Positions 1 to 23,148 of a DNA stretch of 64,000 nucleotides are shown here, in pieces (position 1 is the stretch's first letter; every line of letters begins with the position of its first letter). Made by a program: the position numbers and the translations under genes. The stretch covers positions 15,728 through 79,727 of the forward strand of contig WGFB01000014.1 in the NCBI GenBank assembly GCA_015492435.1. The letters run 5' to 3'. The notes below the pieces were generated by a model. The model had not been told where the DNA came from and did not search any database. It saw only the letters and a list, made by a program, of their open reading frames with translations. This stretch comes from Gammaproteobacteria bacterium. GTDB lineage: Bacteria; Pseudomonadota; Gammaproteobacteria; SZUA-140.

Positions 1-833
1 TCCCTGATCATCTCCTCGGTCACGATACCTTTCTCCACGCACTCCTTGAGGAGCCCGAAGAAGAACCTTTCCTGATTGGGATCCGGGTGCGGCTTGTAAT
101 GCCCCATCAACCCGTACTCGCCGAACAGCTTGCGGCGCAGTGACTGAATCCACCCTTGGGGGGAGAAGCCCCGCACGCGCTCGGGAGGCCTGAAGTCAAC
201 GGGCAGGCCCGTCTTCCATGGCTGGGTCTTGCGCTTGGTGGTATGGAGCATCTTGGTCTTCTCGGTCAGCTTGTCGAAGTCGTTCCACTCATTCTCCAGC
301 AGGCCGATGGTTTCGCGCGGCTCGAGCTTGACGCAGATCCAGTCCATGTAGTCGCGCTTGAATTCGAACATCTCGTTAAACTGTTCCTCGACCCGCCAGT
401 GGGTCAGCTTGGCGCAGTCCAGCAGCATGACGCTGCTGGCGAGGCAGCCGTAGACCTTGCCCTTTCTGCCCGACCGGGGACGGCACATGATGGCCTTTCC
501 TTCCATGTCGCGGGACAACAGCTCCCAGACATCCCCCACGGCGAACACGTCGGGATCGATGACCACCGCCCTGCCCTGGTACCCCATCAGCTCGGGCGGC
601 ATGAACCGGGTGAGGGTGAACGACTGCAGATCGTCATTGAGCCAGGTGCGCTTGGCGCCGTCGCGCAGATAGAGCTGCCCTTCCTTCGCCTGGAAAAAAG
701 GATAGTCCTTCATATGCATGATGCGCACATCGAACTTGTCCGCGTGCCTGGAGTTCCGTTTCAGCGCGTATTCCGCAACCAACGCGCCAATGTATTGCTT
801 GTGATTGGTTTGGATGAATACACAGTGGTCCAT
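1..833 (-). CDS. Hypothetical protein, possible DXD-motif nucleotide-sugar transferase (gene runs off window start; start codon at 833)
   Basis: Own translation of the minus strand from ATG at 833..831 gives a stop-free protein to the window edge (MDHCVFIQTNHKQYIGALVAEYALKRNS...VVIDPDVFAVGD...EYGLMGHYKPHPDPNQERFFFGLLKECVEKGIVTEEMIR). It is absent from the ORF table because it is truncated. The overlapping plus ORF 156..980 has antisense-artefact composition (A/L/G/H/Q-rich). Function guessed only from the DPD motif and the neighbourhood. Confidence 0.5.
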   Translation of the reverse strand, partial: MDHCVFIQTNHKQYIGALVAEYALKRNSRHADKFDVRIMHMKDYPFFQAKEGQLYLRDGAKRTWLNDDLQSFTLTRFMPPELMGYQGRAVVIDPDVFAVGDVWELLSRDMEGKAIMCRPRSGRKGKVYGCLASSVMLLDCAKLTHWRVEEQFNEMFEFKRDYMDWICVKLEPRETIGLLENEWNDFDKLTEKTKMLHTTKRKTQPWKTGLPVDFRPPERVRGFSPQGWIQSLRRKLFGEYGLMGHYKPHPDPNQERFFFGLLKECVEKGIVTEEMIR

Positions 834-909
834 TGCTCAGACTCCCTTGGGGTTGAATGCCGTAGAATATATCACACTGAAAGTGTGGTTTATATCCACA
901 ATGCGGACT

Positions 910-1845
910 TCAGCCACTGGCGGCGCGGCCTGGGGCTTCCGCCCCGTGGTAACCAAAGACCGGCGACAGGGACTCATTGACCAGCCCCTCGATCGCGGTA
1001 ATCTGCCTCTCGTCGAAATAATCGCTGTAGCCCCCTACCTTGGCGCGCCGCACCTTGTAGGAATTGGGGTTCTTGCGGTCCTTGGGCGCCATGCGCGTGC
1101 CGCTGAGCCAGAAGGTCCGTTTCTCCTCCAGCTTTTTCATATTCTCCACCGAGGAAAACTCCACGGCCTGGCGGATTTCCTCGTCGCTTCCGGGAGTCCC
1201 AATGAATTCAACGATTTGCCCCAGGACCTCGGCCGTCCTGGCCCGCAGGTCCTCATAGCGCACCACGAGCAGGTCGTCCATGCGCGGCAGTTCTTCCGCC
1301 CACAGGTTCATGAATGCAATGATCTTGGGCAGGCCGGCATCGGGGTCCATCACGAAGTCATAGATGGAGACGTCCCTGCCGTGTTCCGGATAGCGGTTGA
1401 GCTGCTTTTTTCTGGCGCGCATGCGGTACTTCCATTGGAAATACTGGGAAACCGCCACGTCGCGCGGGTCACGCACCAGGAGCACCACCTTTTTCCCAAG
1501 ATAATCCTCTTTTGAGTCATAGTGTTGGGTATAGTCCTTGAGATAGTTGTCATGGGTGAAATAAATCACGGGAACCGTGGGATTTCTGCGATGCAGATTA
1601 TCGTAGCTCATGAGCTGCCTCATGGACAGGCCGTGGCGAACCTGGTAGAAACGCGACAGCATCACCCGCAGCCAGGTGCGCCCGCTCTTGCCGTAGGAGA
1701 CCACCACGCAATCGGCCCGCCTGATCCAGCGCAGTTCCTCGCGCCCCCGCAACCATCGTTCGAGGGCGGTCTTTTTCTCCCGGGGCAGAAAAAACAACAA
1801 AAACAGGACTGTCTCCCGGGTCAGTTTGTTCAGAATAACGTGCAT
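910..1845 (-). CDS. Sulfotransferase family protein (PAPS-dependent)
   Basis: 311 aa. It has a 5'-PSB-like motif YGKSGRTWL (cf. canonical PKSGTTW) and a later RDPRDVAVS region typical of the 3'-phosphate-binding part of cytosolic-type sulfotransferases. Confidence 0.75.
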   Translation of the reverse strand: MHVILNKLTRETVLFLLFFLPREKKTALERWLRGREELRWIRRADCVVVSYGKSGRTWLRVMLSRFYQVRHGLSMRQLMSYDNLHRRNPTVPVIYFTHDNYLKDYTQHYDSKEDYLGKKVVLLVRDPRDVAVSQYFQWKYRMRARKKQLNRYPEHGRDVSIYDFVMDPDAGLPKIIAFMNLWAEELPRMDDLLVVRYEDLRARTAEVLGQIVEFIGTPGSDEEIRQAVEFSSVENMKKLEEKRTFWLSGTRMAPKDRKNPNSYKVRRAKVGGYSDYFDERQITAIEGLVNESLSPVFGYHGAEAPGRAASG

Positions 1846-1860
1846 AGTTTCCTCGGCGGT

Positions 1861-1895: not shown

Positions 1896-2168
1896 GGGTT
1901 CCATGGCCTTTTCGACGGCATCAGCCGTTGAGATACGCGCGGGTCGGCAGGACAGGCCGGATTGTCTCCCACCGGCCGGCATCATGCAAGGTTCGCAGGC
2001 CGCGCGGAGGCCAAGTATAAAAGAAAACCGTGCCTTTCGTAAGAGCGTGCGCGCCGCTCCGCGCCTGGCGCACCGGCCTTGGGAGCCGCCAGAAATTGTC
2101 CTCCGCGAAACAAATTTGCTATGTTCTCGTCTTCAGTGCATCTCTGGGAACCCGCCCCCGCCAGGTTC

Positions 2169-3236
2169 ATGAATCCGACATCCCCCGAAAAGCTCATTGT
2201 GGCAGTGTGCACCTATCACCGCCCCCACGGTCTGCGCCTGCTCCTGCGGGCGCTTGAGGCGCAGCGCTTCGAACATAATCCAGCGCCTGATATGGAAGTC
2301 CTGGTGGTCGATAACGGGGGTGATGCCGAAACCCGGCGCCTGTGCCAGGACTTCGGAAGCGGGCAGGCACCACTCCCCCTGCGCTATATCCAAGAACCCC
2401 GCGTGGGCATATCCCACGCCCGCAACGCGGTGCTCGATCACATTCCCGCCCACTGCGACTACGTGGCCCTGATAGACGACGATGAGATTCCATGTCCGCG
2501 CTGGCTGGATGAATTGCTGGCGCTCCAGCGCGCGACGGGCGCCGATCTGGTGCGGGGACCGGTGATCCCCCGGTATGCGCCCGGCACGCCGGCCTGGATC
2601 ACGCGGGGAAATTATTTCGGCTGGCCCCGCCCCGAACAGCGCATCACGGACGGCCAGAACCTGGAGCAGGGGGCGACGAACAACATGTTGCTGCGCTGGT
2701 CCGCGGTGCGCGCCACCGGCGCGCGCTTCGACACCGGGCTTGCCCGTACCGGTGGCGAAGACACGGTCTATTTTCATCAGTTGATTCACGCGCACAAACT
2801 GAAAATGGTCTTTGCCGCCCGCGCCTGTGTCACCGAGACAATCCCCCCCACCCGCACATCCCTGCGCGCCTTGCTGAGGCTTCACTTCCGGCTGGGCGCG
2901 AACAGATTGTTGAAGAAAACACTGCGCGCTTCTCCCGGAGACAACAAGGTCATGCTGACGATCGTGCACGCCGGCAAGGGCGTACGGCACGTTCTCCTCG
3001 GCACCGCGGGCCTGTTCACATGCTGGCTCCCCGGGGGGGGCGGGCGGATGCGGGCCCTGGATTCACTGCTGCGCCTGGCGAGAGGCGCGGGACACTTCGC
3101 CGGCCTGCTTGGCCTGCGCTACCGCTATTACGGCGGCATCCCCCATAGCCTGGCAAGCGACGTTCATGCCCCGCCCGAGGAATGGGATACCCGCCGGGAA
3201 AAGTCCGCCTCGAAGCGCCGCAGGCGGTCACAATAG
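2169..3236 (+). CDS. Glycosyltransferase family 2
   Basis: IVAVCTYHRPHGLRLLLRALEAQ...VLVVDNGGDAE...ALIDDDEIP (DXD) is the GT-A fold signature. Start moved to the ATG at 2169 (MNPTSPEKLIVAV). Confidence 0.8.
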   Translation: MNPTSPEKLIVAVCTYHRPHGLRLLLRALEAQRFEHNPAPDMEVLVVDNGGDAETRRLCQDFGSGQAPLPLRYIQEPRVGISHARNAVLDHIPAHCDYVALIDDDEIPCPRWLDELLALQRATGADLVRGPVIPRYAPGTPAWITRGNYFGWPRPEQRITDGQNLEQGATNNMLLRWSAVRATGARFDTGLARTGGEDTVYFHQLIHAHKLKMVFAARACVTETIPPTRTSLRALLRLHFRLGANRLLKKTLRASPGDNKVMLTIVHAGKGVRHVLLGTAGLFTCWLPGGGGRMRALDSLLRLARGAGHFAGLLGLRYRYYGGIPHSLASDVHAPPEEWDTRREKSASKRRRRSQ

Positions 3237-4060
3237 CCGCGATCCCGCTTCGAAGCCCCCTTGGGATACCAGATCAGCCCTCCGCCGCCAAATCTCAGGT
3301 CCACGATACTGTCGTCGAGCGACATGAACTTCAGGCGGGGCGTCTTCCGGTTGAAGCGCAGGAAAAAGTCGTAGATGACCATCTGGTCGAGCTTCTCAAG
3401 CAGGTGGCCATGCGCCACGAAGCGCCCGATCTGCCCGCCGACGGCGCGCAGAAAGGCCATGGCCTGACGCGATGGGGAAATGTACAGCGTGCCCGCCAGC
3501 AGCTTCGTGTTCCCGCCATGTTTGTCAAAGCGCGCATAGAAAGCCAGATCCGCTGCCCCAACTTTGTCTTTCAGTTCCTCGATGGGACCCACCAGCAGCG
3601 CGTCGATATCCAGGCACAGGCAGGGCGCGCCCGCCCCTGCCGCGATCTCCGCAAAGCGCACAAAACGCACGGAATAGTAATACCGCCCGCGCCGCTCGTC
3701 ATCATGGCGGTCCAGATCGACATGCTCCCAGGTATGGGAGAAATGGGGCACCGCCCCGCCGGAGAGTTCCGCAAGCAGTTGCAATTGCGCCGGCGCGGGA
3801 TTGAACAGATGAATATGGATGCCCGAGCCAGGCGCATTGGCCAGCAAGGCGGCGATGAAGGCGCGCCCGTATCGCTCGAAATAGGCGGCGTCGGCCGCGG
3901 CAAAAAAAAGCAGAGGCGCGCCGATACCAGAAGGCATGTGGCCTTCCAGCGGGGGAAGCGCTGTCTCACGCCTGGCATCCTCCACCGCGGGCAACCACTT
4001 GTCCAACCACCGGTAGGAAAGACTGCCCCATGTCTTGCGCAGATATTTACCAAGCTTCAT
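3164..4060 (-). CDS. Hypothetical protein (possible DXD-containing transferase; CLCLDIDALLVGP)
   Basis: 298-aa ORF with coding-like composition and no recognisable family. It sits among glycosyltransferase genes. Its 3' end overlaps the GT2 3' end convergently by 73 nt. Confidence 0.45.
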   Translation of the reverse strand: MKLGKYLRKTWGSLSYRWLDKWLPAVEDARRETALPPLEGHMPSGIGAPLLFFAAADAAYFERYGRAFIAALLANAPGSGIHIHLFNPAPAQLQLLAELSGGAVPHFSHTWEHVDLDRHDDERRGRYYYSVRFVRFAEIAAGAGAPCLCLDIDALLVGPIEELKDKVGAADLAFYARFDKHGGNTKLLAGTLYISPSRQAMAFLRAVGGQIGRFVAHGHLLEKLDQMVIYDFFLRFNRKTPRLKFMSLDDSIVDLRFGGGGLIWYPKGASKRDRGYCDRLRRFEADFSRRVSHSSGGA

Positions 4061-4175: not shown

Positions 4176-5066
4176 TTAAAATGACAGGGAATCTTCATCA
4201 CCGTGACGCGCCCGCGCCTCCATGACATCGATGTAATGCCATCCCTCGACCTCGATTCTGTCAGGAAGCCAAAGACGCGATGGCCATCCCAGGTGATACT
4301 TGGGAGCGATGATGGTCCTGCCGCTGACCTCGTTGAGCCACCCGCCCCACCAGGAGAAACTGCTGTTGGCGATGATATTATATTTGCAGCGCGTGAACAA
4401 AAACATGTCGACCACGCCGGGGTTTCCCCGCGTGACAACCTTGTTGCTGATACCGGAAAAGACCCGTGACGCAAACTCCACGTCATCACTGACAATGACA
4501 TGGAACAGATCGCCGGGAAGCCGGGAAAGCGCTTCCTTGTAATATGCCAGCGGCAATATCCAGCCTATGCCATCGCCCTTGCGGGCCATCTCCATATAAT
4601 CTCCCCGCCTGATATGGATGCAACACCGCCTGGAGCTGGGCGCGGGCCATTGCGCCTCTATCTCGCCGATCAGGCGCCTGTAGCGGGGGCGGGGAGTAAA
4701 CCATTGCAGGACCTGCCGCCTGTTTTCCGCGAAATAGAGAGGGGACTGGAAGAAGCCCCGCACGGTCACGCCGTCGCTGACATCGAAGAACCGGCTGTCG
4801 AAACACTCGTCGTGTATGCCTCGGCTGTAATGCTTTCTGCGCGGCCGGAACGTCTCTCCCCCCAAGGGATGGCGCAGGCGGTAACGCAGCCGGTTGGCGG
4901 CCAGGGACAAGGTTGTCTCGCCATCCAGCTCGAAATACCTGTGCAGGGAACCCTTGCGCCCCCCGCGGAAGCAGAACGCGTAGCCTTTTTGCCCGGCCAG
5001 TGTCTTGCAGGCCGCGTACTGGAACATATTGTTCCCGGTCTGGGCGATCAGCTTCAGCATGATCAT
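4176..5066 (-). CDS. Glycosyltransferase family 11 (alpha-1,2-fucosyltransferase-like)
   Basis: Motifs IHIRRGDY and NSSFSWWGGWL match GT11 motifs I and III (HxRRGD; SxFSWW). The N-terminal GNNMFQYA matches GNQMFQYA. Start probably the internal ATG (MIMLKLIA). Confidence 0.75.
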   Translation of the reverse strand: MIMLKLIAQTGNNMFQYAACKTLAGQKGYAFCFRGGRKGSLHRYFELDGETTLSLAANRLRYRLRHPLGGETFRPRRKHYSRGIHDECFDSRFFDVSDGVTVRGFFQSPLYFAENRRQVLQWFTPRPRYRRLIGEIEAQWPAPSSRRCCIHIRRGDYMEMARKGDGIGWILPLAYYKEALSRLPGDLFHVIVSDDVEFASRVFSGISNKVVTRGNPGVVDMFLFTRCKYNIIANSSFSWWGGWLNEVSGRTIIAPKYHLGWPSRLWLPDRIEVEGWHYIDVMEARARHGDEDSLSF

Positions 5067-5162: not shown

Positions 5163-6278
5163 TCAGTCCGTCTCTTCAAGCAGCGCCTTCAGGCGCGCCA
5201 CCACGCGCGGCAACTCATCCGCGGGCCTGTTTCCCGCGGGAAGGAAATCCTCTCCCAGGGATACCGCCAGCCCCCTGTCCAGCAATACCCGGTGCAAGGC
5301 GGTGAGATCGCGCGCATACCCCAGTATTCCCAGGCGGCGGAATAGCGCGCCCAGCGCCTCACCGAGGGCGCCGCCATTCCCGCCTCCCGCCAGCCTGGCC
5401 ACCCATTGTTGCAGGCGGCTCGCGGGATCTTCCCTGACGGGCAGAGGGAAAATCGCCAGCGGCCTGCCCAGGCGCGCCACTTCCACCATCATGGAAACGC
5501 TGTCGCCGGTCACGATGAAATAGTCGGCCAGGCCGAGCAGCGCACGGTAGGGATTGTCCTTGCCGTCCCTGCGCCACTGGTAGAAACGGGCGTTTCCCGG
5601 CAGCGCGTCCTGGACAGCCTTCACCACCGGCAGCGGCGTGCGCCTGCTGGTAGTGGCATAAAGCGTCCCCCCCGCCTTATCAGCAAGGGCGGAGGCCCTG
5701 CCCACCAGGTCCCGCGCCACGCTTGCATCGAACACAAAGGGCTTGGTGGCGCCGCCGATCATGAGCGCGAAAACGGGACGTTGCAAGGCGGCGAAACGTT
5801 CGCGCCAGGAAGCAGCCGCCTCGGCAATGGCACGCTCGTCCGGCCGCATGAGAGGCAGGTCGAGGCGCAGCACATTGGGCCTGTCGGGCAGATGATACTG
5901 AGATGGCGCGATGATCAGGGCGTAGTCATCCAGGCCCCGCTTGGGGCGTCCCACCAGCACGACCCGGCTCCGCCCTCCACTCTGTTTGCGTATCCACATG
6001 GCCACCATCGCGGAGCGGCGCCCGATGGTGAGGATGAGATCCGGCCATGGCGGCTGCAACGCGTCCGATTTTTGCCGGTCGATGTGATAGAGAGAGGCCT
6101 TGAAGGGAGGCTTGCCCAACACATATTGTTCCAGGGGATAGACACGCTTGGTCTCGCAGGGCAGCCCCAGGGCCTCGGCGATGATTTCCACCTGGGCATT
6201 GTCGCCCAGCTTGTCACTGAGCACCAGCCAGATGCGGGGCGCCTGGCGCGCGTTGTCGGGGACAAAGGGAGTGGACAT
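5163..6278 (-). CDS. ELM1/DUF1022 family protein (predicted GT-B-like transferase)
   Basis: 371 aa. PWPDLILTIGRRS...VVLVGRP...YALIIAPSQYHLP...FALMIGGATKPFVFD...NPYRALLGLADYFIVTGDSVSMMVEVARLGRPLAIF fits the mitochondrial-fission ELM1-like family seen in LPS-core clusters. Confidence 0.6.
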   Translation of the reverse strand: MSTPFVPDNARQAPRIWLVLSDKLGDNAQVEIIAEALGLPCETKRVYPLEQYVLGKPPFKASLYHIDRQKSDALQPPWPDLILTIGRRSAMVAMWIRKQSGGRSRVVLVGRPKRGLDDYALIIAPSQYHLPDRPNVLRLDLPLMRPDERAIAEAAASWRERFAALQRPVFALMIGGATKPFVFDASVARDLVGRASALADKAGGTLYATTSRRTPLPVVKAVQDALPGNARFYQWRRDGKDNPYRALLGLADYFIVTGDSVSMMVEVARLGRPLAIFPLPVREDPASRLQQWVARLAGGGNGGALGEALGALFRRLGILGYARDLTALHRVLLDRGLAVSLGEDFLPAGNRPADELPRVVARLKALLEETD

Positions 6279-6411: not shown

Positions 6412-7536
6412 ATGAACGATTTGTCATCCTCCATCGGCGTCCCGGCCGACCCGCCAACCGTCTGGATCATCACCGGCTACCGCGCCGGGGAAGATACGCA
6501 GATTCTCGCCCTCGCCGAGGCCCTGCAATGGCCCTTCTCCACCAAGCGCCTCGTTTACCAGGCCCATGATTTCATACCCGGCCTGCTGCGCCTGGCCTCG
6601 CTGAAGGGCATCAATCTGGCCCGCTCCAGCCCCCTTGTCCCGCCCTGGCCGGACCTGGTCATCTCCGCGGGCATGCGCAATGAACCCGTATGCCGCTGGA
6701 TCAAGGCGCAATCCGGGGGGAGAACGCGCATTGTCCTGCTGGGCAGGCACTGGGCGCGGCTGGAGCACTTCGATCTCGTCATCACCACTCCCCAATACCG
6801 CCTCCCGCAAGATACAAAAATTCTGCACAATATCACGACCCTGCACCGGGTCAACGAAAACATGCTGCGGGAGGCCTGCACCCGGCATGCCGCCACCCTG
6901 GCCGGCTTGCCGCGCCCCCACATCGCGGTGATCATGGGCGGCAGCAGCGGTCCCTATACCCTTGGGCGGCGTGCCGCGCGGCGCCTGGCCCGCCAGGCCT
7001 GCGCAATGGCACGCGCCCAGGGAGGCGCCCTCCTCGTCACCAGCAGCTCGCGCACCCCCGCCGCCGCCATCGATGCCTTTTCCGCGGCCGCCGCATGCCC
7101 CATGCGCTTCTACCGGTGGAAACCGGCCGACAAGGCCAACCCCTATTACGCCTTCCTGGCCTCGGCCGACGCCATTATCGTCACGGGTGACAGCATCGCC
7201 ATGCTCTCGGAAGCCTGCGCCACGGGAAAACCCGTCTATATTTTCGACCTGGGAACGGGCAGGGAGGCCATGCGCCCCCTGCCAGCAGGCTCAAGGCACG
7301 CCCGCGGCAGCGCGGAGCGGAACGATTTCCGGCTGGGCGCGTTGCTCTACAAGCTGCTCATGCGCCACGGCCCGCAACGGCTGACACGCGACATCCGCCT
7401 GGTACACAGTCAATTGACCGCCTCGGGGCTGGCCACCTGGCTGGACGAAACATGCACGCCACCCTCCCCGGGCCAACGCCCCCCCGACAGCATCGAGCGC
7501 GCCGTGGCGCGGGTACGCTCAATGCTCGGCCGGTGA
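6412..7536 (+). CDS. ELM1/DUF1022 family protein (paralog of 5163..6278, divergently transcribed)
   Basis: 374 aa with the same motif series as its neighbour (PWPDLVISAGMRN...IVLLGRH...DLVITTPQYRLP...IAVIMGGSSGPY...NPYYAFLASADAIIVTGDSIAMLSEACATGKPVYIF). Confidence 0.6.
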   Translation: MNDLSSSIGVPADPPTVWIITGYRAGEDTQILALAEALQWPFSTKRLVYQAHDFIPGLLRLASLKGINLARSSPLVPPWPDLVISAGMRNEPVCRWIKAQSGGRTRIVLLGRHWARLEHFDLVITTPQYRLPQDTKILHNITTLHRVNENMLREACTRHAATLAGLPRPHIAVIMGGSSGPYTLGRRAARRLARQACAMARAQGGALLVTSSSRTPAAAIDAFSAAAACPMRFYRWKPADKANPYYAFLASADAIIVTGDSIAMLSEACATGKPVYIFDLGTGREAMRPLPAGSRHARGSAERNDFRLGALLYKLLMRHGPQRLTRDIRLVHSQLTASGLATWLDETCTPPSPGQRPPDSIERAVARVRSMLGR

Positions 7537-9299: not shown

Positions 9300-10502
9300 T
9301 CAATTTTCCAGGATTCTCCCGCTCAGGGCGCCAAAGGCATCGACGACGGCATCGATCTGGGCGGCGCTGTGGGCCGCGCTGAGGCTGCAACGCAACAGGC
9401 ATTCCGTGGTCGGCGAGGCGGGTGGCATCACCAGGTTCACATAGACCCCCTTGTCCAGAAGGTCATGCCAGACTTTCAGGGCGCTGTCCTTCGATCTGCC
9501 CAGGGTGACGGCAACGACCGGGCTGGATTCGGGTCCCATCCTGAAACCGAAGGCCTTGAGCCCCTGGTACAGGCGGTGAGCGTTGTCCCACAGGCGCTTG
9601 CGCAGCTCAGGACCCTGTTCCCGCAGGATACTCAGGGCGACGCGGGTGGAGGCAATGATGGAAGGCGACGAGGAGGCCGTAAAAATATAGGGACGCATGG
9701 CATAGCGTGCATGCTCCAGTTCCTGCCACCTGCTGACGCAGAACCCGCCGATGGCCCCCAGGCTCTTGCTGAAGGTGCCGACGATGAAATCCACGTCCTC
9801 CTCCACGCCCGCCTGCTCCACCAGTCCCCGCCCTCGCTCCCCCAGAACGCCCAGGGAATGGGCCTCGTCCACCATCAGATAGGCTCCGTGGCGGCGCTTG
9901 ACTTCCACGATCTCCTGGAGGGGCGCCTGATCGCCGATCATGCTGTAGATGCCTTCCACGACAACGAGGGCCGATTCCGCCTTGTCTCCCAGGCGCCTGA
10001 GACGCTTATCCAGATCGGCGGGGTCGTTGTGACGAAAGCGGATGACCTCCGCATTGCCGAGACGGCAGCCATCATAGATGCTGGCATGGCTGTCCGCGTC
10101 CAGGAGAATGGCGTCCGAGGCGCCTGGTATGGTGGACAGTATACCCAGGTTGGCGATGTAACCCGTCGAAAACACGATGGAGGCCGGCAGTCCGAAAAAC
10201 TCCGCCAGTTCCCTTTCCAGCGCCAAGTGGCCGGCATAGGTGCCATTGGCCATGCGGGATCCCGTGGTGCCGGTTCCCTCCTCTTCCAGCGCCTTCCTGC
10301 CCGCGGCGATGCAGCGTGGATCGAAGGTCAGCCCCAGGTAGTTGTTGGTGCCCGCCAGGATGGTGCGGCGGCCGTTGACAATGGCCTCCGTCTCCGAAAG
10401 CACCTGCTCGACGACGACGTTGAAGGGATTGGCATCCAGTCTTGCCACATCTTCTCGCAGGTTGGCATAGTACTGGAACTTATCAAAGATCGACCGTGTC
10501 AT
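9300..10502 (-). CDS. spt: Serine palmitoyltransferase (alpha-oxoamine synthase family)
   Basis: 400 aa and very close to Sphingomonas SPT: ILAGTNNYLGLTFDP...GSRMANGT...IVFSTGYIANLGILST...ILLDADSHASIYDGCRLGNAEVIRFRHND..DLDKRL...GTFSKSLG (the PLP lysine). Confidence 0.85.
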   Translation of the reverse strand: MTRSIFDKFQYYANLREDVARLDANPFNVVVEQVLSETEAIVNGRRTILAGTNNYLGLTFDPRCIAAGRKALEEEGTGTTGSRMANGTYAGHLALERELAEFFGLPASIVFSTGYIANLGILSTIPGASDAILLDADSHASIYDGCRLGNAEVIRFRHNDPADLDKRLRRLGDKAESALVVVEGIYSMIGDQAPLQEIVEVKRRHGAYLMVDEAHSLGVLGERGRGLVEQAGVEEDVDFIVGTFSKSLGAIGGFCVSRWQELEHARYAMRPYIFTASSSPSIIASTRVALSILREQGPELRKRLWDNAHRLYQGLKAFGFRMGPESSPVVAVTLGRSKDSALKVWHDLLDKGVYVNLVMPPASPTTECLLRCSLSAAHSAAQIDAVVDAFGALSGRILEN

Positions 10503-10753
10503 TCACTCAGTTCCTGGAGGCTGACCGCCAGGTCCCTGACCGTGTTGATATCGGGCAACCGATTGAGAGGTATGGAGATATCCAGATGATCCTCGATCTC
10601 CATGAGCAGTTCAAGCAACCTGACGGAATCAATATCGAGATCGGCGACAAGCTGGGTTTCTTCGTTCAGCCGCTGGTTGGCCTCGCTGGCAAAAGGCTTT
10701 AACACTTCATAGAGTGCGTCGAGTATTTCCTGATATTGTTTCATGTCGTTCAC
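10499..10753 (-). CDS. acp: Acyl carrier protein (sphingolipid-dedicated ACP)
   Basis: 84 aa, acidic. DLDIDSVRLLEL is a phosphopantetheine attachment motif. The gene overlaps the spt start by 4 nt. Confidence 0.8.
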   Translation of the reverse strand: MNDMKQYQEILDALYEVLKPFASEANQRLNEETQLVADLDIDSVRLLELLMEIEDHLDISIPLNRLPDINTVRDLAVSLQELSE

Positions 10754-11112: not shown

Positions 11113-12057
11113 CTACCGCGTCCCGTGGGAGGGATACAGGGTTTTTCTCAGCCCTTCCGAAAGTGAAATACGCGGCGCCCAGCCACAGGCATCCCGCCAG
11201 GGCGAGGTGTCATGGCATACCCAGTCTTCATGGAGCAATTCCCGCGCCTTGCCAGGGGTCAGCATGGGGGCGTATCCGGCCACGCGGGCCATCTGTCCAT
11301 TGAGCGCGGCGAGGCCACGCAGCGCCCAGGAGGGAAGATAGCATTTCCTCACCCTGGCACCACGGAGGCTGGCAACCGCTGCCACCACATCTTCCCAGCC
11401 ATAACCACCAGCCCGTCCGTCATCCAGTTCATAGACCCCGCTCCGGCCGGATGGCATCTCCAGGCCACATAGAATGGCCCGCACCAGATCATCGACATAG
11501 AGCAGGGAAAAACGCGCTTGCCTGGAGCCGGGAATAAGGGCCAGGCCACGGGCCATCCACTGGAACAAGGGCAGGAGTTCACGGTCGCCGGGACCGTAGA
11601 CCGCCGGCGGACGCAACGCCAGCCACTCCAGCTTCTCTCCCAGAGCGAGAAGGACTTCCTCTCCTCCGCGCTTGCTGGCGGCATAGTGGGACAAGGCGGG
11701 CTCGCGGGCCGCCAGGGAAGACAGCGCGATGAGGCGGGGCGGGCAGGGTTGCGCCAGCACGGCACTGGCCATTTTCCTCACACCTTCCACGTTGACGCGG
11801 TCGAACTGGGCCTGGGTACGGCCGCGCACGGCGCCGGCACAATGGATCACGGCCCTGACACCGCGCGTCAGGTGTTCGAGGCAGTCCTGATCGTCCAGGT
11901 CCCCGCTGATCCATGCGAGGCCCGGCCGGGCCGGTGATTCCAGGGGACGGACGGCCCGCCTGAGGGCGCGCACTTCCCAACCCTGGTCCAGCAACGCCTT
12001 GACCAGGGCGCGCCCGATGAATCCCGTCGCGCCGGTGACTGCTACGCTGCGGGACAC
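11113..12057 (-). CDS. cerR: NAD-dependent epimerase/dehydratase family reductase (bacterial 3-ketodihydrosphingosine/ceramide reductase CerR candidate)
   Basis: 314 aa. N-terminal Rossmann motif VTGATGFIGRALV. It sits between acp and the acyl-ACP synthetase, as in the Caulobacter ceramide cluster. Confidence 0.6.
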   Translation of the reverse strand: MSRSVAVTGATGFIGRALVKALLDQGWEVRALRRAVRPLESPARPGLAWISGDLDDQDCLEHLTRGVRAVIHCAGAVRGRTQAQFDRVNVEGVRKMASAVLAQPCPPRLIALSSLAAREPALSHYAASKRGGEEVLLALGEKLEWLALRPPAVYGPGDRELLPLFQWMARGLALIPGSRQARFSLLYVDDLVRAILCGLEMPSGRSGVYELDDGRAGGYGWEDVVAAVASLRGARVRKCYLPSWALRGLAALNGQMARVAGYAPMLTPGKARELLHEDWVCHDTSPWRDACGWAPRISLSEGLRKTLYPSHGTR

Positions 12058-12090: not shown

Positions 12091-13896
12091 TTATTGATCT
12101 CCCGCTGCCGCGGTCTGCGTTTCCCAGTCGTGCGCCTCAATGAAATTCTGGCGCGCCTTGGACCGCGAGAGCTTGCCGGAGGAGGTGCGCGGCAGGGTAT
12201 GCAGGGGCACCAGCTCCACATAGCAGTCGATGCCCAGTTCGGAACGCACGCGCTGCTTGAGGCGGCTGACCAGGCAGGCCTGGACCGCGGGATCCTTCTT
12301 GCGGCACTGAACCACCATCACGGTGGTCTCCTTGCCGCCCGGACCGGGCGCCGAGAAGGCCAGGGCATCGCCCGTGCGCACTTCGGGCTGCTGCTCGGCC
12401 AGATACTCCAGATCCTGGGGCCAGATGTTGCGCCCGTTGATGATGATAAGGTCCTTCTCCCGGCCCGTGATCACGAGCTGGCCGTCGAGGCGGTATCCGA
12501 TATCACCCGTGTTCAGCCAGCCGTCCGCGGACAGGGTCCGGCGCGTGATCTCGGGCTCGTTGAAGTAGCCGGACATGACGCTGGGGCCACGCAAGTAGAT
12601 CGTGCCGCTGTGACGCTCTGGCAGGGCATTACCCTCCTGATCACGTATTTCCACTTCGAAACCCGGCAGCGGGGTTCCGCAGACAACGAAGGATCGGGTG
12701 CGGGGGGACAGATCTTCCTTGTTACCGCCCGGCACCTCACGTGCCTCGTGACACTTGGCCAGATGATCGGCGTCGATGCGATCCACCTGCAGGCCCGTGT
12801 TGAGGGGCGCGAAACTGATGGCCAGGGAACATTCGGCCATGCCGTAGCAGGCCAGGAAGGCCTTGGGATCGAAGCCGCTGGGTTCCAGCGCCTTTGCGAA
12901 TCTCAGCAGCGGCTCGGAGCGGATCATCTCCGCACCGACTCCGGCAATGCGCCATGCGCTGAGGTCCAGCTTGCTGGCCTCGCCCGCGCGTATGCAGCGC
13001 TCCACCAGTTCATAGCCGAAGGGCGGGCCGAAGGAAATGGTCGCCTTCGTTTTGCTCATCAGGGACAACCATTGACGCGGGCGCATGGCGAATTCGCGTG
13101 TGCCGAGATAGTCGACGGATACCTGAGAAGTGACGGGCACGAGCACCAGCCCCACGAATCCCATGTCGTGATAGAACGGCAGCCAGGACACGTAACGGTC
13201 TCCTGGAACCATTTTCAGGCCGTGCTTGATGATGCCCGCCAGATTGTCCAGCACTGTTTCCTGGGTGATCATGACGCCGCGCGGGAAGCGGGTACTGCCG
13301 GAGGTGTATTGTATGTAAGCCAGTTCGTCGGACTCCAGGGGACGCAGGGCCTGCTGGCTTTCGGGGAAGTTCTCGAAGTCCACCGGATCGCCGACGAAGG
13401 CCATGTCCAGGCCCTCGGCCGCTTCCTCCAGATAGGGCAGGAAACCCGCGGCGGAGACGCCTACCGAGGCATTGCAACTGGTCAGCATGGAACGCAGATG
13501 AGCGACGTAGGCCTCGTGTCCGCCCAGGCTGATGGGGATGGGGAGCGGCACGGGCACCAGGCCCGCGTACTGACATGCAAAGAAGAATCGCAGGAAGTCC
13601 GGATGCGTCTCGGCAATCAGCGCGACGCGCGCGCCGCGTTCCAGTTCCAGGCCGAGAAAACGGCGGGCCAGTATTCGTGCTTCCTGACGCAGCCTGGCAT
13701 AGGAGAGTACGGCATATACTTCGCCTCGCCCGGTATAGAAATTACAACCGGTTTCCCCTTGAGCCGCATAGTCCAGGGCTTCCGCAAGATTGGAAAAGTC
13801 GGCTGCACGGAATGGCAAAGTATTATGGGTAGGTGTCGTCTCCAGATCCAAATTAACCTCCTTAATACTTCTCCTGTTGGTTTCTGTCCCTAGCAT
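12091..13896 (-). CDS. Fatty acyl-AMP ligase / acyl-ACP synthetase
   Basis: 601 aa. AMP-binding motifs YTSGSTRFPRGV, YGMAE, TGDIG and the C-terminal SSGKLSR lysine motif. Good RBS (AAGGAGG) upstream. Confidence 0.8.
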   Translation of the reverse strand: MLGTETNRRSIKEVNLDLETTPTHNTLPFRAADFSNLAEALDYAAQGETGCNFYTGRGEVYAVLSYARLRQEARILARRFLGLELERGARVALIAETHPDFLRFFFACQYAGLVPVPLPIPISLGGHEAYVAHLRSMLTSCNASVGVSAAGFLPYLEEAAEGLDMAFVGDPVDFENFPESQQALRPLESDELAYIQYTSGSTRFPRGVMITQETVLDNLAGIIKHGLKMVPGDRYVSWLPFYHDMGFVGLVLVPVTSQVSVDYLGTREFAMRPRQWLSLMSKTKATISFGPPFGYELVERCIRAGEASKLDLSAWRIAGVGAEMIRSEPLLRFAKALEPSGFDPKAFLACYGMAECSLAISFAPLNTGLQVDRIDADHLAKCHEAREVPGGNKEDLSPRTRSFVVCGTPLPGFEVEIRDQEGNALPERHSGTIYLRGPSVMSGYFNEPEITRRTLSADGWLNTGDIGYRLDGQLVITGREKDLIIINGRNIWPQDLEYLAEQQPEVRTGDALAFSAPGPGGKETTVMVVQCRKKDPAVQACLVSRLKQRVRSELGIDCYVELVPLHTLPRTSSGKLSRSKARQNFIEAHDWETQTAAAGDQ

Positions 13897-14703: not shown

Positions 14704-15858
14704 ATGGAAAACTGCTGCGCCATGTCTGAATCATCAAGGTTTCACATCGTACCCGTCGGGAACGCCAGGCAACTGGAAACATTTATCCGGATGCCATGGC
14801 CCATCTACCGCGATGACCCGGCCTGGGTTCCCCCGCTCATATACGAGCGCAAGGAACACCTGTCGGAAAAAAACCCTTTTTTCCAACACGCCCGCTGGCA
14901 GGCCTGGCTGGCCATGGACGAAGACCGCCCAGTGGGACGCATCAGCGCCCAGATTGACCAGTTGCACCTGGAACGCTATGACGACAAGTGCGGCCATTTC
15001 GGCATGCTGGAAGCCATCGACAACCCGGCGGTTTTCTCTCTGCTGCTGAACACGGCGGAGCAATGGCTGCGCGATCAGGGCATGGCCCTGATCCGCGGTC
15101 CATTCAACCTCTCCATCAATGAAGAATGCGGGCTCCTGGTGGAGGGCTTCGACACACCGCCCTCCCTCATGATGGGACATGCCCGGCCTTACTACGGCCC
15201 GCATGTGGAAGGCCAGTCCTACAGCGTGGTTAAGCAATTGCTGGCCTATCGTATTGCCACCAGGAAACAGCCTCCGGAAATCATGCAAAAGCTGACGCGC
15301 AAGGCCGGCCGCACCGCGACGGCGCGCCCCCTGAGACGCAAGGAAATCGACAAGGAGCTGGAGATCATGCAGGACATCTTCAACGATGCCTGGTCCAACA
15401 ACTGGGGATTCGTTCCCTTCACCGCCGAGGAATTCAAGGAGGTCGGGCGCAACCTCCTGATGCTGGTCAGCGACGACTTCGTGCAGATCGCGGAGATCGA
15501 CGGCGAGCCGGTGGCCATGATGGTTGCCCTGCCCAATGTCAACGAGGCCATCAAAGACCTGGATGGCAGACTCTTTCCAACGGGATTTCTGAAGCTGCTG
15601 TGGCGTCTCAAGGTCAAATATCCGCGCAGCGGGCGCATCCCCCTCATGGGGGTGCGCAAGCGTTATCATCATACCCCCCTGGGGCCCGGACTGGCTTATC
15701 TGATGATTTCCGCCATCCGTGACGCCGTCTTGAAACGCGGCATCCAGGATATGGAAATGTCCTGGATACTGGAGGACAATGCCGGCATGCGCCATATCTT
15801 GGAAACCGCCGGCGCCGAAATTTACAAGCGCTACAATATTTATCAGAAATCATTGTGA
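14704..15858 (+). CDS. GNAT-fold N-acyltransferase, bacterial ceramide synthase (bCerS) candidate
   Basis: 384 aa with coding-like composition. It is divergently oriented to the spt-acp-cerR-ACP-synthetase block across an AT-rich control region. The family call rests on context and size, not on clear motifs I could verify by eye. Confidence 0.5.
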   Translation: MENCCAMSESSRFHIVPVGNARQLETFIRMPWPIYRDDPAWVPPLIYERKEHLSEKNPFFQHARWQAWLAMDEDRPVGRISAQIDQLHLERYDDKCGHFGMLEAIDNPAVFSLLLNTAEQWLRDQGMALIRGPFNLSINEECGLLVEGFDTPPSLMMGHARPYYGPHVEGQSYSVVKQLLAYRIATRKQPPEIMQKLTRKAGRTATARPLRRKEIDKELEIMQDIFNDAWSNNWGFVPFTAEEFKEVGRNLLMLVSDDFVQIAEIDGEPVAMMVALPNVNEAIKDLDGRLFPTGFLKLLWRLKVKYPRSGRIPLMGVRKRYHHTPLGPGLAYLMISAIRDAVLKRGIQDMEMSWILEDNAGMRHILETAGAEIYKRYNIYQKSL

Positions 15859-16679
15859 CAGCGCGCACACGGGCCACACCCCTGCCTGACCAGCCCCGTT
15901 TCAGTGCCATCATCCTGGCGGGGGACCGCCGCCCCGGGGACCCACTCGTTCTGAAGGCGGGGGTCGCCGGCAAGGCCTTGATCCCCGTCGCCGGCATTCC
16001 CATGGTCCAACGCGTCGTCAGCGCCCTTGAGGAAAGCCGTTTCATCGGCAGGCGCATACTCTGCGGGCCGCCCCGCGACGCCCTGATAAGCGCCCCCCGC
16101 CTCCTGGAGATGATTCAGGCGGGTGAAGTCGAATGGATGGAGAGCCAGCCTTCCCCATGCCTCAGCGCCATCCACTCCATGGCGCGCATTCCCGATACGG
16201 AACCCGTGCTGCTCACCACGGCGGATCACGCACTGCTGAGCACGGAGATTCTTGACGAATTCTGCCGCCACGCACTCGACCACAAGCATGATGTGATGGC
16301 GGGCCTGGCACGCCACGAGGACATTCTGCGCGCCTACCCGGAAACGAACAGGACGTCCCTGCGCTTTCGCGATGGCGCTTTCAGCGGCTGCAACCTGTTT
16401 GCCTTTCCCACTCCGGCAGGCCGCCGCATCACGGCATTCTGGCGCCGCGTGGAGCAACAACGCAAGAACCCCTTCCGGGTCGTGAGCGCGGCGGGCTGGA
16501 TGGCTGTCCTGCGCTATGCCTTGGGCCGGCTGACCCTGGAAGAAGGACTGCAGCGCATCTCCCGGCGCCTGGATCTGCGTGTCGGGGTCGCTGTCTTGTC
16601 CCAGCCCGAAGCAGCCATCGACATCGATACTGTTGAAGACTGGAAATTGGCCGACAAAATAGCCAGGGAACGCCCGTAA
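15855..16679 (+). CDS. MobA-like NTP-transferase domain protein (nucleotidyltransferase)
   Basis: 274 aa. The N-terminus AIILAGDRRPGDPL...KALIPVAGIPMVQRVV is typical of MobA-like and sugar-phosphate nucleotidyltransferases. It overlaps the bCerS stop by 4 nt (ATGA), which implies translational coupling. Confidence 0.7.
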   Translation: MTARTRATPLPDQPRFSAIILAGDRRPGDPLVLKAGVAGKALIPVAGIPMVQRVVSALEESRFIGRRILCGPPRDALISAPRLLEMIQAGEVEWMESQPSPCLSAIHSMARIPDTEPVLLTTADHALLSTEILDEFCRHALDHKHDVMAGLARHEDILRAYPETNRTSLRFRDGAFSGCNLFAFPTPAGRRITAFWRRVEQQRKNPFRVVSAAGWMAVLRYALGRLTLEEGLQRISRRLDLRVGVAVLSQPEAAIDIDTVEDWKLADKIARERP

Positions 16680-16686
16680 CGGACGT

Positions 16687-17709
16687 TTGCGAACACCCAT
16701 ATTGCCTGACTACCCGGGGATGACCAGACAACAACAGCACAAACCCTGCACCGCGCGGAGCATCACCCACCTGCTGCCGGCACGGATGACTGCCCTGCTG
16801 CTGTTGCCCATGCTGATGATGCCGGTGGTCAAGCTTCAGGCCGCTCCCAGCACGGGAGAACAGGCGGCTCCACCATCCTATGACCTCAATTCCCTGACAT
16901 GGCGTGCATTGCATTTCGCAACCTCCATCATGGGCATGCCGCTTCACGCCAAAATGAAGGCCCGGATTCTTTCAAGGGACGAGGCACAGCGGCATCTGGT
17001 TTCCCCGGGCGAGGGGCACGGTATGCCACCCGCTGACGCCGTGCTGCAATTGGAGGTATTCTCCTCGTTCATCAATGACAAAGACATTCACACCCGCCTG
17101 ATGATCAATCCCGGTGACGCCGCGGCGCTGCAGCGCACCCGCGTCGAACTGACCCCGGGAGACGAGCGCTACAAGGCATACCGTTTCACCGGGGAAGGGG
17201 TTTTCATCCTGCGGCGCGTCCCCAGGCGGGGCGAGGCTGAAAAGCCCTTTACGGAATGGACGGGCACACACGAATCCTTCATCCCCTATCCCGGCCGTCA
17301 CCGCCGCCCGGACCTCGCCTCGGACACGGCCGCGCTGCTCTACATGGGTTCAGCCGCGAACTTCACAGCACCCGGCGACAGCAAAAGCTTCATTGCCTAT
17401 TTCGATGACAGCTTTCACGTGATTACGATGGAGTACCAGGGTATCGAAGGCGTACGGGCGGATTTCCAGGCCGGGCGCCAGGATGCGGGGTCACGGCGCA
17501 TCCTGAGCTACCGGGACGCCCTGCGGCTGACGATCCGCGCCCATCCCCTGGAACGCCCCAATGAAGAAAGCACGCTCCAGATCGCGGGCCTGGAGCCCCC
17601 GGTGGAGCTGTTCATCGATCAGGAAATGCGTGTCCCCCTGGAATTGCGCGGCCGCTTCGGTTTCATCGGGGAAATCTCCCTGCGCCTGGACAGGGCAGAG
17701 CTGCGGTGA
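16687..17709 (+). CDS. Secreted/periplasmic hypothetical protein
   Basis: 340-aa ORF. A likely signal peptide starts at the internal Met (MTALLLLPMLMMPVVKLQAAP, ~16786). No family recognised. It is the last gene of the bCerS operon. Confidence 0.5.
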   Translation: MRTPILPDYPGMTRQQQHKPCTARSITHLLPARMTALLLLPMLMMPVVKLQAAPSTGEQAAPPSYDLNSLTWRALHFATSIMGMPLHAKMKARILSRDEAQRHLVSPGEGHGMPPADAVLQLEVFSSFINDKDIHTRLMINPGDAAALQRTRVELTPGDERYKAYRFTGEGVFILRRVPRRGEAEKPFTEWTGTHESFIPYPGRHRRPDLASDTAALLYMGSAANFTAPGDSKSFIAYFDDSFHVITMEYQGIEGVRADFQAGRQDAGSRRILSYRDALRLTIRAHPLERPNEESTLQIAGLEPPVELFIDQEMRVPLELRGRFGFIGEISLRLDRAELR

Positions 17710-23146: not shown

Positions 23147-23148
23147 GT

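Follow-up and report, generated by a model that had tools for sequence, protein, structure and literature searches.

A sulfotransferase and glycosyltransferase block inside a Caulobacter-type sphingolipid island of an uncultured gammaproteobacterium: candidate genes for a sulfated glycosphingolipid

To our knowledge, bacterial sphingolipid synthesis was worked out between 2021 and 2025, and genes have been assigned for phosphoglycerate and simple hexosyl head groups only. The Caulobacter crescentus cluster for the synthesis and transport of ceramide, ceramide phosphoglycerate (CPG) and CPG2 is said to have been described by Olea-Ozuna in 2024, Zik in 2022 and Dhakephalkar in 2023 and 2025. Between CC_1152 and CC_1168 this cluster holds LptG2 and LptF2 (CC_1155 and CC_1156), a phosphoesterase (CC_1158), a ceramide kinase (CC_1160) and the Tam41-like CpgC (CC_1161) (PMC11324152, PMC12275187), and furthermore spt, acpR, cerR and aasR (CC_1162 to CC_1165), cerS (CC_1154) and a gene for a MobA/CofC-like nucleotidyltransferase (CC_1153) (PMC11324152 main text and S1 Text; PMC12275187). 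CC_1153 lies beside cerS and is required for CPG2 (PMC11324152 and S1 Text), and CpgA and CpgD are both needed for the second phosphoglycerate. Here we describe a locus at positions 1 to 17,709 of a 64,000-nucleotide stretch of DNA, called the window below, in which genes of the same kind stand together with genes for a sulfotransferase, several glycosyltransferases and an ATP-binding cassette (ABC) exporter.

The locus consists of 15 contiguous genes (Table 1), found by a choice of open reading frames (ORFs) guided by third-codon-position GC (GC3) and by Pfam and NCBIfam searches, and the gene calls on identical public contigs match this choice. The minus strand carries three operons and the plus strand the genes for GT2 and ELM1b and a three-gene operon led by a GNAT-type gene. 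No unrelated gene interrupts positions 1 to 17,709, and the widest gap is the divergent region of 808 nt in front of that operon. All the gene types listed in an earlier note, made on this DNA from its letters alone, were recovered with Pfam and NCBIfam where it had placed them, and the right-hand operon adds two genes to its list, for a nucleotidyltransferase and a secreted protein. The same note saw a glycosyl- and sulfotransferase set and a ceramide set side by side with no unrelated gene between them. The union of the two sets is real, but mere adjacency is the wrong description, the sphingolipid genes flank the sulfotransferase block on both sides.

This became clear from the same contig, reached through a look-up of the sulfotransferase, which continues 10 kb further left. 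Beyond the GT8-like gene at the window edge come, in this order, genes for a tandem GT8-like paralogue of 306 aa, a third ELM1-like protein (E 8e-63), a 317-aa Tam41-like protein, a DAGK_cat protein, a phosphoesterase, LptF and LptG, followed by an unrelated Na+/H+ exchanger. The DAGK_cat protein is ceramide-kinase-like (E 1.7e-8) and the phosphoesterase is calcineurin-like, as is CC_1158. The Tam41_Mmp37 match of the 317-aa, CpgC-like protein is weak (E 2.9e-4, below the gathering score), and its homologue in locus L172, 51% identical, has an unmarked PF09139 match. Counterparts of both CpgB (DAGK_cat) and CpgC (Tam41-like) are thus present just left of the window. Since counterparts of CC_1155 to CC_1165 lie on both sides, the sulfotransferase and glycosyltransferase block is an insertion within a sphingolipid island of the Caulobacter type. 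The island measures about 38 kb, the window holds its right-hand two-thirds, and trpE (17917), gph and rpe at 17917-20818 end it on the right. At least six independent assemblies (L001-L003, L087-L089) share this arrangement, which is therefore not an assembly artefact, and scaffolds of 51-52 kb from metagenomes as well as two assemblies of metagenome-assembled genomes (MAGs) encode an identical Spt protein.

The recurrence of the block with rearranged gene orders, the ceramide genes at its flanks, the intact cofactor motifs of the sulfotransferase and the GT-A and GT-B folds of the transferases together support the reading that the product is a sulfated, glycosylated sphingolipid, and on balance we lean towards it. 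The domain identities and the gene linkage are observed, and from these we infer the order of the steps, the sugars, the sulfation site and the acceptor.

The sulfotransferase is, judging by its motifs, a bona fide enzyme of the cytosolic SULT-like type that uses 3'-phosphoadenosine-5'-phosphosulfate (PAPS). Its best relatives in the PDB are cytosolic SULT-like enzymes, plant SOT16/18, Teg12/14, StaL and SULT2A, and the aligned motifs are YGKSGRTWL at the 5'-phosphosulfate-binding site (5'-PSB), VRDPRDVAVS at the 3'-phosphate-binding site (3'-PB) and RRAKVGGYSDYF. GKSGRTW, RDPRDVAVS and the C-terminal RRAKVGGY, which is of the RKGxxGxW type, align with the corresponding motifs of SOT16 and Teg14, and the protein belongs to Sulfotransfer_1. 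Homologues occur in nine other sphingolipid islands (L005, L011, L027, L040, L042, L169, L170, L174 and L175).

The conservation of the locus was assessed from two directions. In the forward direction, the window proteins were compared by tblastn with 80 species-level Spt loci, covering up to 10 kb on each side. An acyl carrier protein (ACP) gene adjoins spt in 73 of them, and the genes for AasR (61), CerR (59), the ABC exporter (45; 50-88% identity) and the GNAT-type protein (42) are also widespread. The GNAT-type gene is always on the strand opposite to aasR, and a nucleotidyltransferase gene follows it directly in 34 loci. ELM1-like genes were found in 17 and the sulfotransferase in five (L005, L011, L027, L040, L042), where it is accompanied by the GT8-like protein at 70-98% identity. 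Gene order and copy number vary. For instance, L040 has three sulfotransferases, three ELM1-like and two GT8-like genes distributed on both sides of spt, and in L011 two ELM1 genes, located downstream of the ABC exporter, enclose the sulfotransferase and two GT8-like genes. The comparison of synteny proposed in the earlier note thus shows that the block recurs near spt in several lineages despite rearrangement.

In the reverse direction, the sulfotransferase served as the query of a metagenome scan. Among the 80 loci obtained (55-97% identity) its constant partners were the GT8-like protein (60-88% identity) and an ELM1a gene. Across all loci of other lineages, 29 of 37 type-a ELM1 genes have a sulfotransferase as their direct neighbour. 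What evolution has kept together is a triad, made up of the sulfotransferase, the GT8-like protein and ELM1a. At least 12 lineages have it in sphingolipid islands, with the gene order shuffled, among them the cultured Thiogranum longum and Oceanibacterium hippocampi.

It could be argued that positions 1-9255 are an unrelated capsule, exopolysaccharide or O-antigen locus, a chance neighbour of the ceramide genes in one genome. GT2, GT11 and ABC exporters are indeed common in polysaccharide loci, and the genes for GT2, GT11 and the 298-aa protein with a DxD motif are poorly conserved among the Spt loci, homologues of GT2 (46%) and GT11 (56%) being found in L007 alone among the 80. Homologues of the 298-aa protein are beside ELM1 genes in L005, L007 and L008, and since the three genes recur together only in L007 we regard them as lineage-specific accessories. 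Against a chance neighbour stand the sphingolipid genes on both flanks, the recurrence of the association across gamma- and alphaproteobacteria, and the 38-kb island itself, in which no Wzx/Wzy/Wzz, Wza/Wzc, KpsMT or initiating phosphoglycosyltransferase was found. In addition, the spt operon ends in the gene for the ABC exporter as a conserved feature: of the 70 loci whose flanks are long enough to show it, 30 have this gene immediately after spt, on the same strand. Chance adjacency to genes of the spt pathway is put, as a rough estimate, at about 1% per genome. The likelihood that block and ceramide genes are together by chance is close to nil, and this explanation, largely refuted by synteny, is hardly credible.

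The most serious competitor is that the sulfotransferase, GT8-like and ELM1 module decorates lipid A or the inner core of lipopolysaccharide (LPS), giving a sulfated LPS, and clusters with ceramide genes because genes for outer-membrane lipids and their export co-locate. Several observations weigh against a sphingolipid product and are best read together. When loci were selected by their sulfotransferase, just 4 of the 18 that are at least 12 kb long have a sphingolipid-specific gene within 10 kb, and most of these contigs lack spt within that distance. The triad without such a gene nearby, at places beside LpxL-like or PagL genes, keeps LPS in play as acceptor. At eight metagenomic loci (among L102, L103, L106, L107, L112, L122, L137 and L143) a Lip_A_acyltrans gene (PF03279, E 2e-42) is inside the module, and at one locus PagL adjoins it. 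The loci with PF03279 also carry a 2-oxoglutarate (2OG)-Fe(II) oxygenase and two to three sulfotransferases, and some are compact islands bounded by exeA/exeB. The sole bacterial ELM1-like protein studied by experiment, A1S_2903/GtrOC1 of Acinetobacter baumannii, takes part in assembly of the lipooligosaccharide (LOS) core (PMC10936431), being needed for adding the third 3-deoxy-D-manno-octulosonic acid (KdoIII) and N-acetylglucosaminuronic acid (GlcNAcA) to Kdo2-lipid A (PMC10936431, PMC4172580). The LptF and LptG encoded beside the island (L085:17175-19362(-)) exceed the NCBIfam equivalog cut-offs of the canonical LPS permeases (304 bits with a cut-off of 230, 344 bits with one of 240). To this can be added that every step after ceramide is deduced from the gene neighbourhood, that the bCerS-like and CerR-like proteins are candidate orthologues of the Caulobacter enzymes by family and position, and that sulfation presupposes PAPS made by the host. 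The enzyme needed for PAPS is cysC (APS kinase, where APS is adenosine 5'-phosphosulfate), and neither cysC nor cysDN was found among the annotated ORFs of window positions 29639-42053.

To get a better picture, contexts on long contigs were gathered from the GT8-like family and ELM1b instead of Spt, and these revealed the same mixture of genes at five more places: in Thiogranum longum, on a 3.1-Mb MAG contig, in a Porticoccaceae MAG, in Oceanibacterium hippocampi and in L172. In T. longum (cultured, Ectothiorhodospiraceae; L169) aasR is divergent from the genes for the GNAT-type protein, nucleotidyltransferase, phosphoesterase, DAGK, a CpgC-like protein, ELM1a, the sulfotransferase, a protein of no assigned family and a second sulfotransferase, and the order continues with two GT8-like genes, GT4, Wzy_C, ELM1c, LptF, LptG, the ABC exporter, ELM1b and acp. 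The 3.1-Mb contig (L170) shows the right half of this order again and ends in acp-spt. The Porticoccaceae MAG has GNAT, nucleotidyltransferase, phosphoesterase, spt and acp, after which ELM1b, the ABC exporter and a fused LptFG lead to a sulfotransferase and ELM1a; a 2OG oxygenase, two more sulfotransferases and a GT8-like gene close the series. In O. hippocampi (cultured, Alphaproteobacteria) DAGK, LptFG, phosphoesterase, nucleotidyltransferase, GNAT, FA_hydroxylase, a GT8-like gene and a sulfotransferase are adjoined by an LpxL-like acyltransferase (L174:8974-9897(+)), ELM1b, a second GT8-like gene and ELM1a.

The LpxL-like gene of O. hippocampi is located by genes for bCerS, CerK and a CC_1158-like protein, inside a sphingolipid island, which implies that LpxL-like and 2OG oxygenase genes belong to such islands too; the LpxL-like contexts were therefore dropped as an argument against sphingolipids. 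Near the triad of L171 only LptF/LptG and the ABC exporter are seen, and within 10 kb there is no ceramide gene. The left end of this contig and the right end of L176, which comes from a sister sample, are alike in having ELM1 and then a hexapeptide transferase, and L176 carries genes for CerR, AasR, a GNAT-type protein, CerK and a CpgC-like protein. If the two join, the island would exceed 30 kb and include bCerS, AasR, CerR and CerK, so the apparently spt-free L171 seems to be part of a long sphingolipid island. A flank of 10 kb can then miss ceramide genes, and the 4 of 18 is probably a lower bound. The remaining contexts without sphingolipid genes contain AsmA-like, FA_hydroxylase, DUF3108, GT4, methyltransferase and asparagine synthase genes.

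Further evidence against LPS as the acceptor is that no waaA, waaC/F, lpx or kds gene was found in any context examined, that in the lineage of the window the module lies between spt and the genes for the CerK- and CpgC-like proteins, and that the usual place of ELM1b is between acp/spt and the ABC exporter linked to spt. The earlier note had named a conventional LPS-core or O-antigen locus, conserved in relatives lacking spt, as what would speak against its proposal. Neither the island nor 20 contexts contain waaA/waaC/waaF, Wzx/Wzy/Wzz or Wzm/Wzt with an initiating transferase, and Wzy_C, which resembles the O-antigen ligase WaaL and as such speaks for LPS, is present in two islands alone (L169:13362-14543(-) and L170:11954-13276(+)). 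These Wzy_C genes may also point to a periplasmic ligation of polysaccharide onto the sphingolipid. Taken together, we find decoration of LPS unlikely, and a sulfated glycosphingolipid remains the reading that we prefer.

A different question is where the sulfate goes. It might be placed directly on the lipid part, on a hydroxyl of the long-chain base or of a hydroxy-acyl chain, with the glycosyltransferases acting independently. The nearest solved relatives of the enzyme sulfate small hydrophobic alcohols or aglycones (the hydroxysteroid and bile-salt sulfotransferase SULT2A, Teg12/14 and StaL), the sulfate of environmental sulfate-1-deoxyceramides is on the acyl chain (PMC11334938), and FA_hydroxylase or 2OG oxygenase genes occur with the module in L174, L175, L144 and small islands. 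No hydroxylase is encoded in the window, however, and the sulfotransferase nearly always has a glycosyltransferase for a partner, ELM1a in the proportion given above and a GT8-like protein in most loci. This pairing fits a sequence of sugar first and sulfate afterwards, which weakens the case for sulfation of the lipid, and we think it quite improbable.

For the preferred product, a sulfated glycosphingolipid, the following pathway can be proposed. By homology, AasR would load a fatty acid onto the dedicated ACP, Spt would condense it with serine, and N-acylation by bCerS and reduction by CerR would yield dihydroceramide; these steps, with AasR, ACP, Spt, bCerS and CerR, are established in Caulobacter. 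The CerK-like, Tam41/CpgC-like and CC_1158-like proteins and the CC_1153-like nucleotidyltransferase may then make a phospho-linked primer, as in CPG synthesis. Instead of the second phosphoglycerate of Caulobacter, a short glycan would be built in the cytoplasm by the three ELM1-like GT-B and two GT8-like GT-A proteins, to which this lineage may add GT2, GT11 and the DxD protein. The sulfate would be added on the cytoplasmic side, since PAPS is cytoplasmic. The MsbA-like exporter would presumably flip the finished anionic lipid over the inner membrane, and LptF/LptG-type permeases could hand it on toward the outer membrane. It is conceivable, and in our view rather doubtful, that the whole amounts to a "sphingo-LOS", an LPS-like lipid of the outer leaflet with a sulfated oligosaccharide on a ceramide phosphate anchor, made by a widespread group of gamma- and alphaproteobacteria of the sea and of sediments, put together by ELM1-like and GT8-like proteins, in some cases acylated by an LpxL-like or extended by a WaaL-like enzyme, flipped by the MsbA-like protein, provided with its own LptF/LptG and standing in partly or fully for lipid A-based LPS. 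If so, its hosts would include the cultured T. longum and O. hippocampi.

Table 1. Genes of the sphingolipid island at window positions 1 to 17,709
Product	Position	Strand	Length (aa)	Operon	Matches and remarks
GT8-like glycosyltransferase	3..833	-	302	minus-strand 1	start codon at 833; last 25 codons and stop beyond left window edge; full length read from L085
PAPS-type sulfotransferase	910..1845	-	311	minus-strand 1	Pfam Sulfotransfer_1 E 1.1e-24
GT2 glycosyltransferase	2121..3236	+	371 as called		Pfam Glycos_transf_2 E 5e-17; ORF opens at 2079
DxD-motif protein (LCLDIDAL)	3164..4060	-	298	minus-strand 2	function without assignment
GT11, alpha-1,2-fucosyltransferase-like	4176..5066	-	296	minus-strand 2	Pfam Glyco_transf_11 E 4e-17, 62.8 bits, cut-off 23.9
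ELM1-like GT-B protein type a (ELM1a)	5163..6278	-	371	minus-strand 2	Pfam Mito_fiss_Elm1 E 6e-54
ELM1-like GT-B protein type b (ELM1b)	6412..7536	+	374		Pfam Mito_fiss_Elm1 E 1e-56
MsbA-like ABC half-transporter	7519..9255	-	578	minus-strand 3	Pfam ABC_membrane and ABC_tran; 44 nt downstream of spt
Spt, serine palmitoyltransferase	9300..10502	-	400	minus-strand 3	NCBIfam equivalog NF047599 627.9 bits, cut-off 500; Pfam Aminotran_1_2
Dedicated ACP, AcpR-like	10499..10744	-	81	minus-strand 3	Pfam PP-binding E 5.5e-9; stop overlaps spt start by 4 nt
CerR-like NAD(P)-dependent epimerase/SDR-type reductase	11113..12057	-	314	minus-strand 3	Pfam Epimerase E 5e-28
AasR-like fatty acyl-AMP ligase/acyl-ACP synthetase	12091..13896	-	601	minus-strand 3	NF006624 788 bits, cut-off 600; Pfam AMP-binding
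bCerS-like GNAT-type N-acyltransferase	14704..15858	+	384	plus-strand	divergent from aasR; homologues named N-acetyltransferase/GNAT
MobA/CofC-like nucleotidyltransferase	15855..16679	+	274	plus-strand	Pfam NTP_transf_3 E 3e-10; overlaps bCerS-like gene by 4 nt
Secreted protein	16720..17709	+	329 as called	plus-strand	N-terminal hydrophobic signal-like segment read from translation; last island gene

The glycosyltransferase genes of the island differ much in how well they can be placed. Two of the products had been listed as DxD proteins of no known family; the first can now be given a GT8-like GT-A fold, and the second, of 298 aa, has no family match. The GT8-like protein gave no Pfam or NCBIfam match above threshold (GT8, PF01501, E 0.04, 14 bits where the cut-off is 24.3), and its DxD motif VVIDPD (D93/D95) is invariant in sets of 23 and 35 homologues. 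The AlphaFold2 model has a pLDDT of 79.7 and a pTM of 0.82, and with it Foldseek returned solely retaining GT-A enzymes of GT8 (GlyE, 7.5e-9, LgtC, XXYLT1, glycogenin and LARGE1; TM 0.35-0.46). The model thus marks it as a GT-A fold protein that is GT8-like and not a demonstrated GT8 member, a label chosen because fold and DxD motif fit but the PF01501 score is below the cut-off. The family counts more than 6300 proteins, all annotated as hypothetical. It is unusually conserved, the best 120 matches being 73-100% identical, and is without a Pfam or NCBIfam model.

The ELM1-like proteins belong to PF06258 and have the GT-B fold with two Rossmann domains, that of ELM1b resembling lipid-acceptor transferases. 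Three related islands (L118:12006-14411(+), L101 and L120) encode an 801-aa protein with a GT8-like N-terminal part (GT8 E 0.007) and an ELM1-like C-terminal part (Mito_fiss_Elm1 E 2e-65), and a natural fusion of this kind hints, on the Rosetta-stone principle, at joint action of the two families. When the PDB was searched by sequence with the GT8-like profile, ELM1a and the six-homologue profile of the 298-aa protein, nothing meaningful came up. The 298-aa protein has no Pfam or NCBIfam match, and since hhalign against the GT8-like family gave a probability of 2.4%, it is not called a glycosyltransferase here.

The ceramide genes present few surprises. Spt, a pyridoxal phosphate (PLP)-dependent serine palmitoyltransferase, scores above the cut-off of NF047599 and has 366 relatives in species-representative genomes. 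The AasR-like gene opens the aasR-cerR-acp-spt-ABC operon, which thus contains both a dedicated ACP and an acyl-ACP synthetase, and the gene for the CerR-like protein, of the short-chain dehydrogenase/reductase (SDR) type, is between aasR and acp. The bCerS-like protein has no Pfam match itself, its homologues number more than 8000, are named N-acetyltransferase or GNAT, and many have PF00583. That its gene is on the opposite strand agrees with the literature, according to which the cerS of bacteria always belongs to a separate operon (PMC11324152). The secreted protein has neither a Pfam nor an NCBIfam match, and a 52% homologue is found at the same position in L005. A relationship to the DUF3108 proteins at similar positions in related islands was considered and discarded, there is no similarity. 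On a 748-kb metagenome contig (L144) the triad has as neighbours an AsmA/YhdP-like protein of 1336 aa (4573-8583(-)), a fatty-acid hydroxylase, a PhyH dioxygenase and a DUF3108 protein, and DUF3108 is seen again in L101, L118 and L120, hinting at a context of lipid transport and modification.

The ABC exporter has its best NCBIfam matches in the HepA family (300 bits, cut-off 725) and MsbA (TIGR02203, 254.9 bits); the latter score is far below the equivalog cut-off of 602, so the protein is not MsbA. It is also encoded in deltaproteobacterial Spt loci that lack the sulfotransferase module. A flippase for bacterial sphingolipids has not yet been identified (PMC11087976), and together with the conserved linkage to spt this makes the exporter, by gene neighbourhood, a general candidate for that role. 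The LptF/LptG pair of the island may be a dedicated second pair, as in Caulobacter, or the sole pair of the genome.

The 808-nt non-coding region between aasR and the bCerS-like gene (13897-14703) is AT-rich toward aasR. Its best sigma-70-like site, at 13941-13913(-) just upstream of aasR with 10 of 12 matches, was the one good -35/-10 site in a scan for promoters and terminators that gave nothing else above shuffled sequences. An Rfam scan of positions 1-20000 (E up to 1) gave two matches at chance level and none in the region. A 68-aa ORF called there on public contigs is without support. To the right of the island, positions 21-64 kb of the window were checked and are housekeeping. Genes at 20991-27697(-) encode a molybdopterin oxidoreductase-like protein (QrcB-like, 306 bits), an Fe-S protein (QrcC/DsrO-like), an NrfD/DsrP-like membrane subunit and c-type cytochromes, and resemble an alternative-complex-III or Qrc-type quinone-interacting complex that is unrelated to the sphingolipid island. 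At 29639-42053 there are a DegP/DegS-like protease, tatC, hisF, hisA, hisC, hisD, murA and a deaminated-glutathione-amidase-like nitrilase.

The host is a gammaproteobacterium and not, as first assumed, a betaproteobacterium. Among 185,579 species genomes the nearest Spt relatives are MAGs of "Gammaproteobacteria bacterium" (88%, 82% and 78%), then Methylococcales and others, and the named sources of homologues of the window proteins are Gammaproteobacteria, with Thiogranum among the closest. Nor is the background unusual for such a pathway, Spt clusters are documented in beta- and gammaproteobacteria (NCBIfam NF047599; PMC11324152). NCBI curates a betaproteobacterial Spt model, and Nitrosomonas, Azotobacter and Pseudomonas luteola have complete ceramide/CPG clusters (PMC11324152).

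Ceramide core and island architecture are known already; the head-group module of sulfotransferase, GT8-like and ELM1 proteins and the spt-linked ABC exporter are not described. The suggestion that a sulfotransferase beside core ceramide genes was new holds as far as full-text literature searches go, these found no paper linking a sulfotransferase to bacterial sphingolipid genes. Sulfate-1-deoxyceramides have been detected in Black Sea lipidomes with no gene assigned (PMC11334938). If our reading is correct, the locus would be the first genetic handle on sulfated bacterial sphingolipids (ceramides with sulfate occur in marine lipidomes, and no enzyme is known for them), and would give a role to bacterial ELM1-like proteins and to more than 6000 conserved "hypothetical" GT8-like proteins. 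It would also offer a candidate for the flippase that the field still lacks. In Caulobacter, anionic sphingolipids can render lipid A dispensable, and a sulfated sphingolipid would for this reason bear on outer membranes built without or alongside LPS. The breadth, thousands of homologues, and two cultured hosts that allow testing, T. longum and O. hippocampi, add to the interest, and the LPS alternative lowers it.

Several known systems can be compared with the island. A1S_2903/GtrOC1 of A. baumannii shares with the ELM1-like proteins PF06258 and the clan GT-B, and is likewise encoded among transferases that build a glycan on a lipid anchor bound for the outer membrane. The likeness is one of family, however: the acceptor of A1S_2903 is Kdo2-lipid A, and spt is absent from its locus, whereas the three paralogues here are found among spt, the ABC exporter, sulfotransferases and LptF/LptG. 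The exporter has the build of MsbA, a six-helix ABC_membrane followed by ABC_tran, with MsbA_lipidA as second-best NCBIfam match, but its gene is co-transcribed with spt and not with lpxK.

Sulfation of a sugar in an envelope or secreted glycolipid by a cytoplasmic, PAPS-dependent enzyme before export is known from Mycobacterium Stf0 (sulfolipid-1) and from Sinorhizobium NodH and LpsS. These belong to other sulfotransferase families, their acceptors are trehalose, Nod factor and LPS, and they have no known link to sphingolipid genes. The sulfonolipids of Bacteroidota (capnine, sulfobacins) are sulfur-containing, sphingolipid-like outer-membrane lipids made by an Spt-like alpha-oxoamine synthase. 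Their sulfur enters as cysteate at the condensation, as a C-S sulfonate, and no sulfotransferase is known to take part, whereas the synthase of the window scores as Spt by the equivalog model and the locus has a PAPS-type O-sulfotransferase as a separate enzyme. The logic of the eukaryotic sulfatide pathway, with ceramide galactosyltransferase and Gal3ST1, is the same as that proposed here, from ceramide by way of glycosylation and PAPS-dependent sulfation to an anionic glycosphingolipid. The enzymes are unrelated: the sulfotransferase is of the SULT-like Sulfotransfer_1 family and not of that of the cerebroside sulfotransferase Gal3ST, and the transferases are ELM1-like and GT8-like. According to Stankeviciute (2022), as cited in later papers, all bacterial ceramide enzymes except Spt are non-homologous to the eukaryotic ones.

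The closest likeness is to Caulobacter. Both have an operon of the order aasR-cerR-acpR-spt, with the CerR-like gene of the island in the position of CC_1164 (PMC11324152), a GNAT-type gene in a transcription unit of its own (cerS in Caulobacter, bCerS-like here), behind it a gene for a MobA/CofC-like nucleotidyltransferase, in the island the positional counterpart of CC_1153, and nearby a DAGK-type ceramide kinase, a Tam41-like CpgC, a calcineurin-like phosphoesterase and an LptF/LptG pair, and in both an anionic head group is expected. In the 38-kb island no CpgA (CC_1159, a CDP-alcohol phosphatidyltransferase, PF01066), CpgD (CC_1152, a CTP:phosphoglycerate cytidylyltransferase), LptC2, HIT protein or Wzx-like CC_1166 was found, and the CC_1153-like nucleotidyltransferase is the only one; CpgA and CpgD may lie elsewhere in the genome. 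The flippase candidate of Caulobacter is a different, Wzx-like protein. Instead of these genes the island has the MsbA-like ABC gene in the spt operon, three ELM1-like and two GT8-like genes, GT2, GT11 and the PAPS sulfotransferase. Compared with Caulobacter, the negative charge of the lipid would thus stem at least partly from sulfate and not from a second phosphoglycerate.

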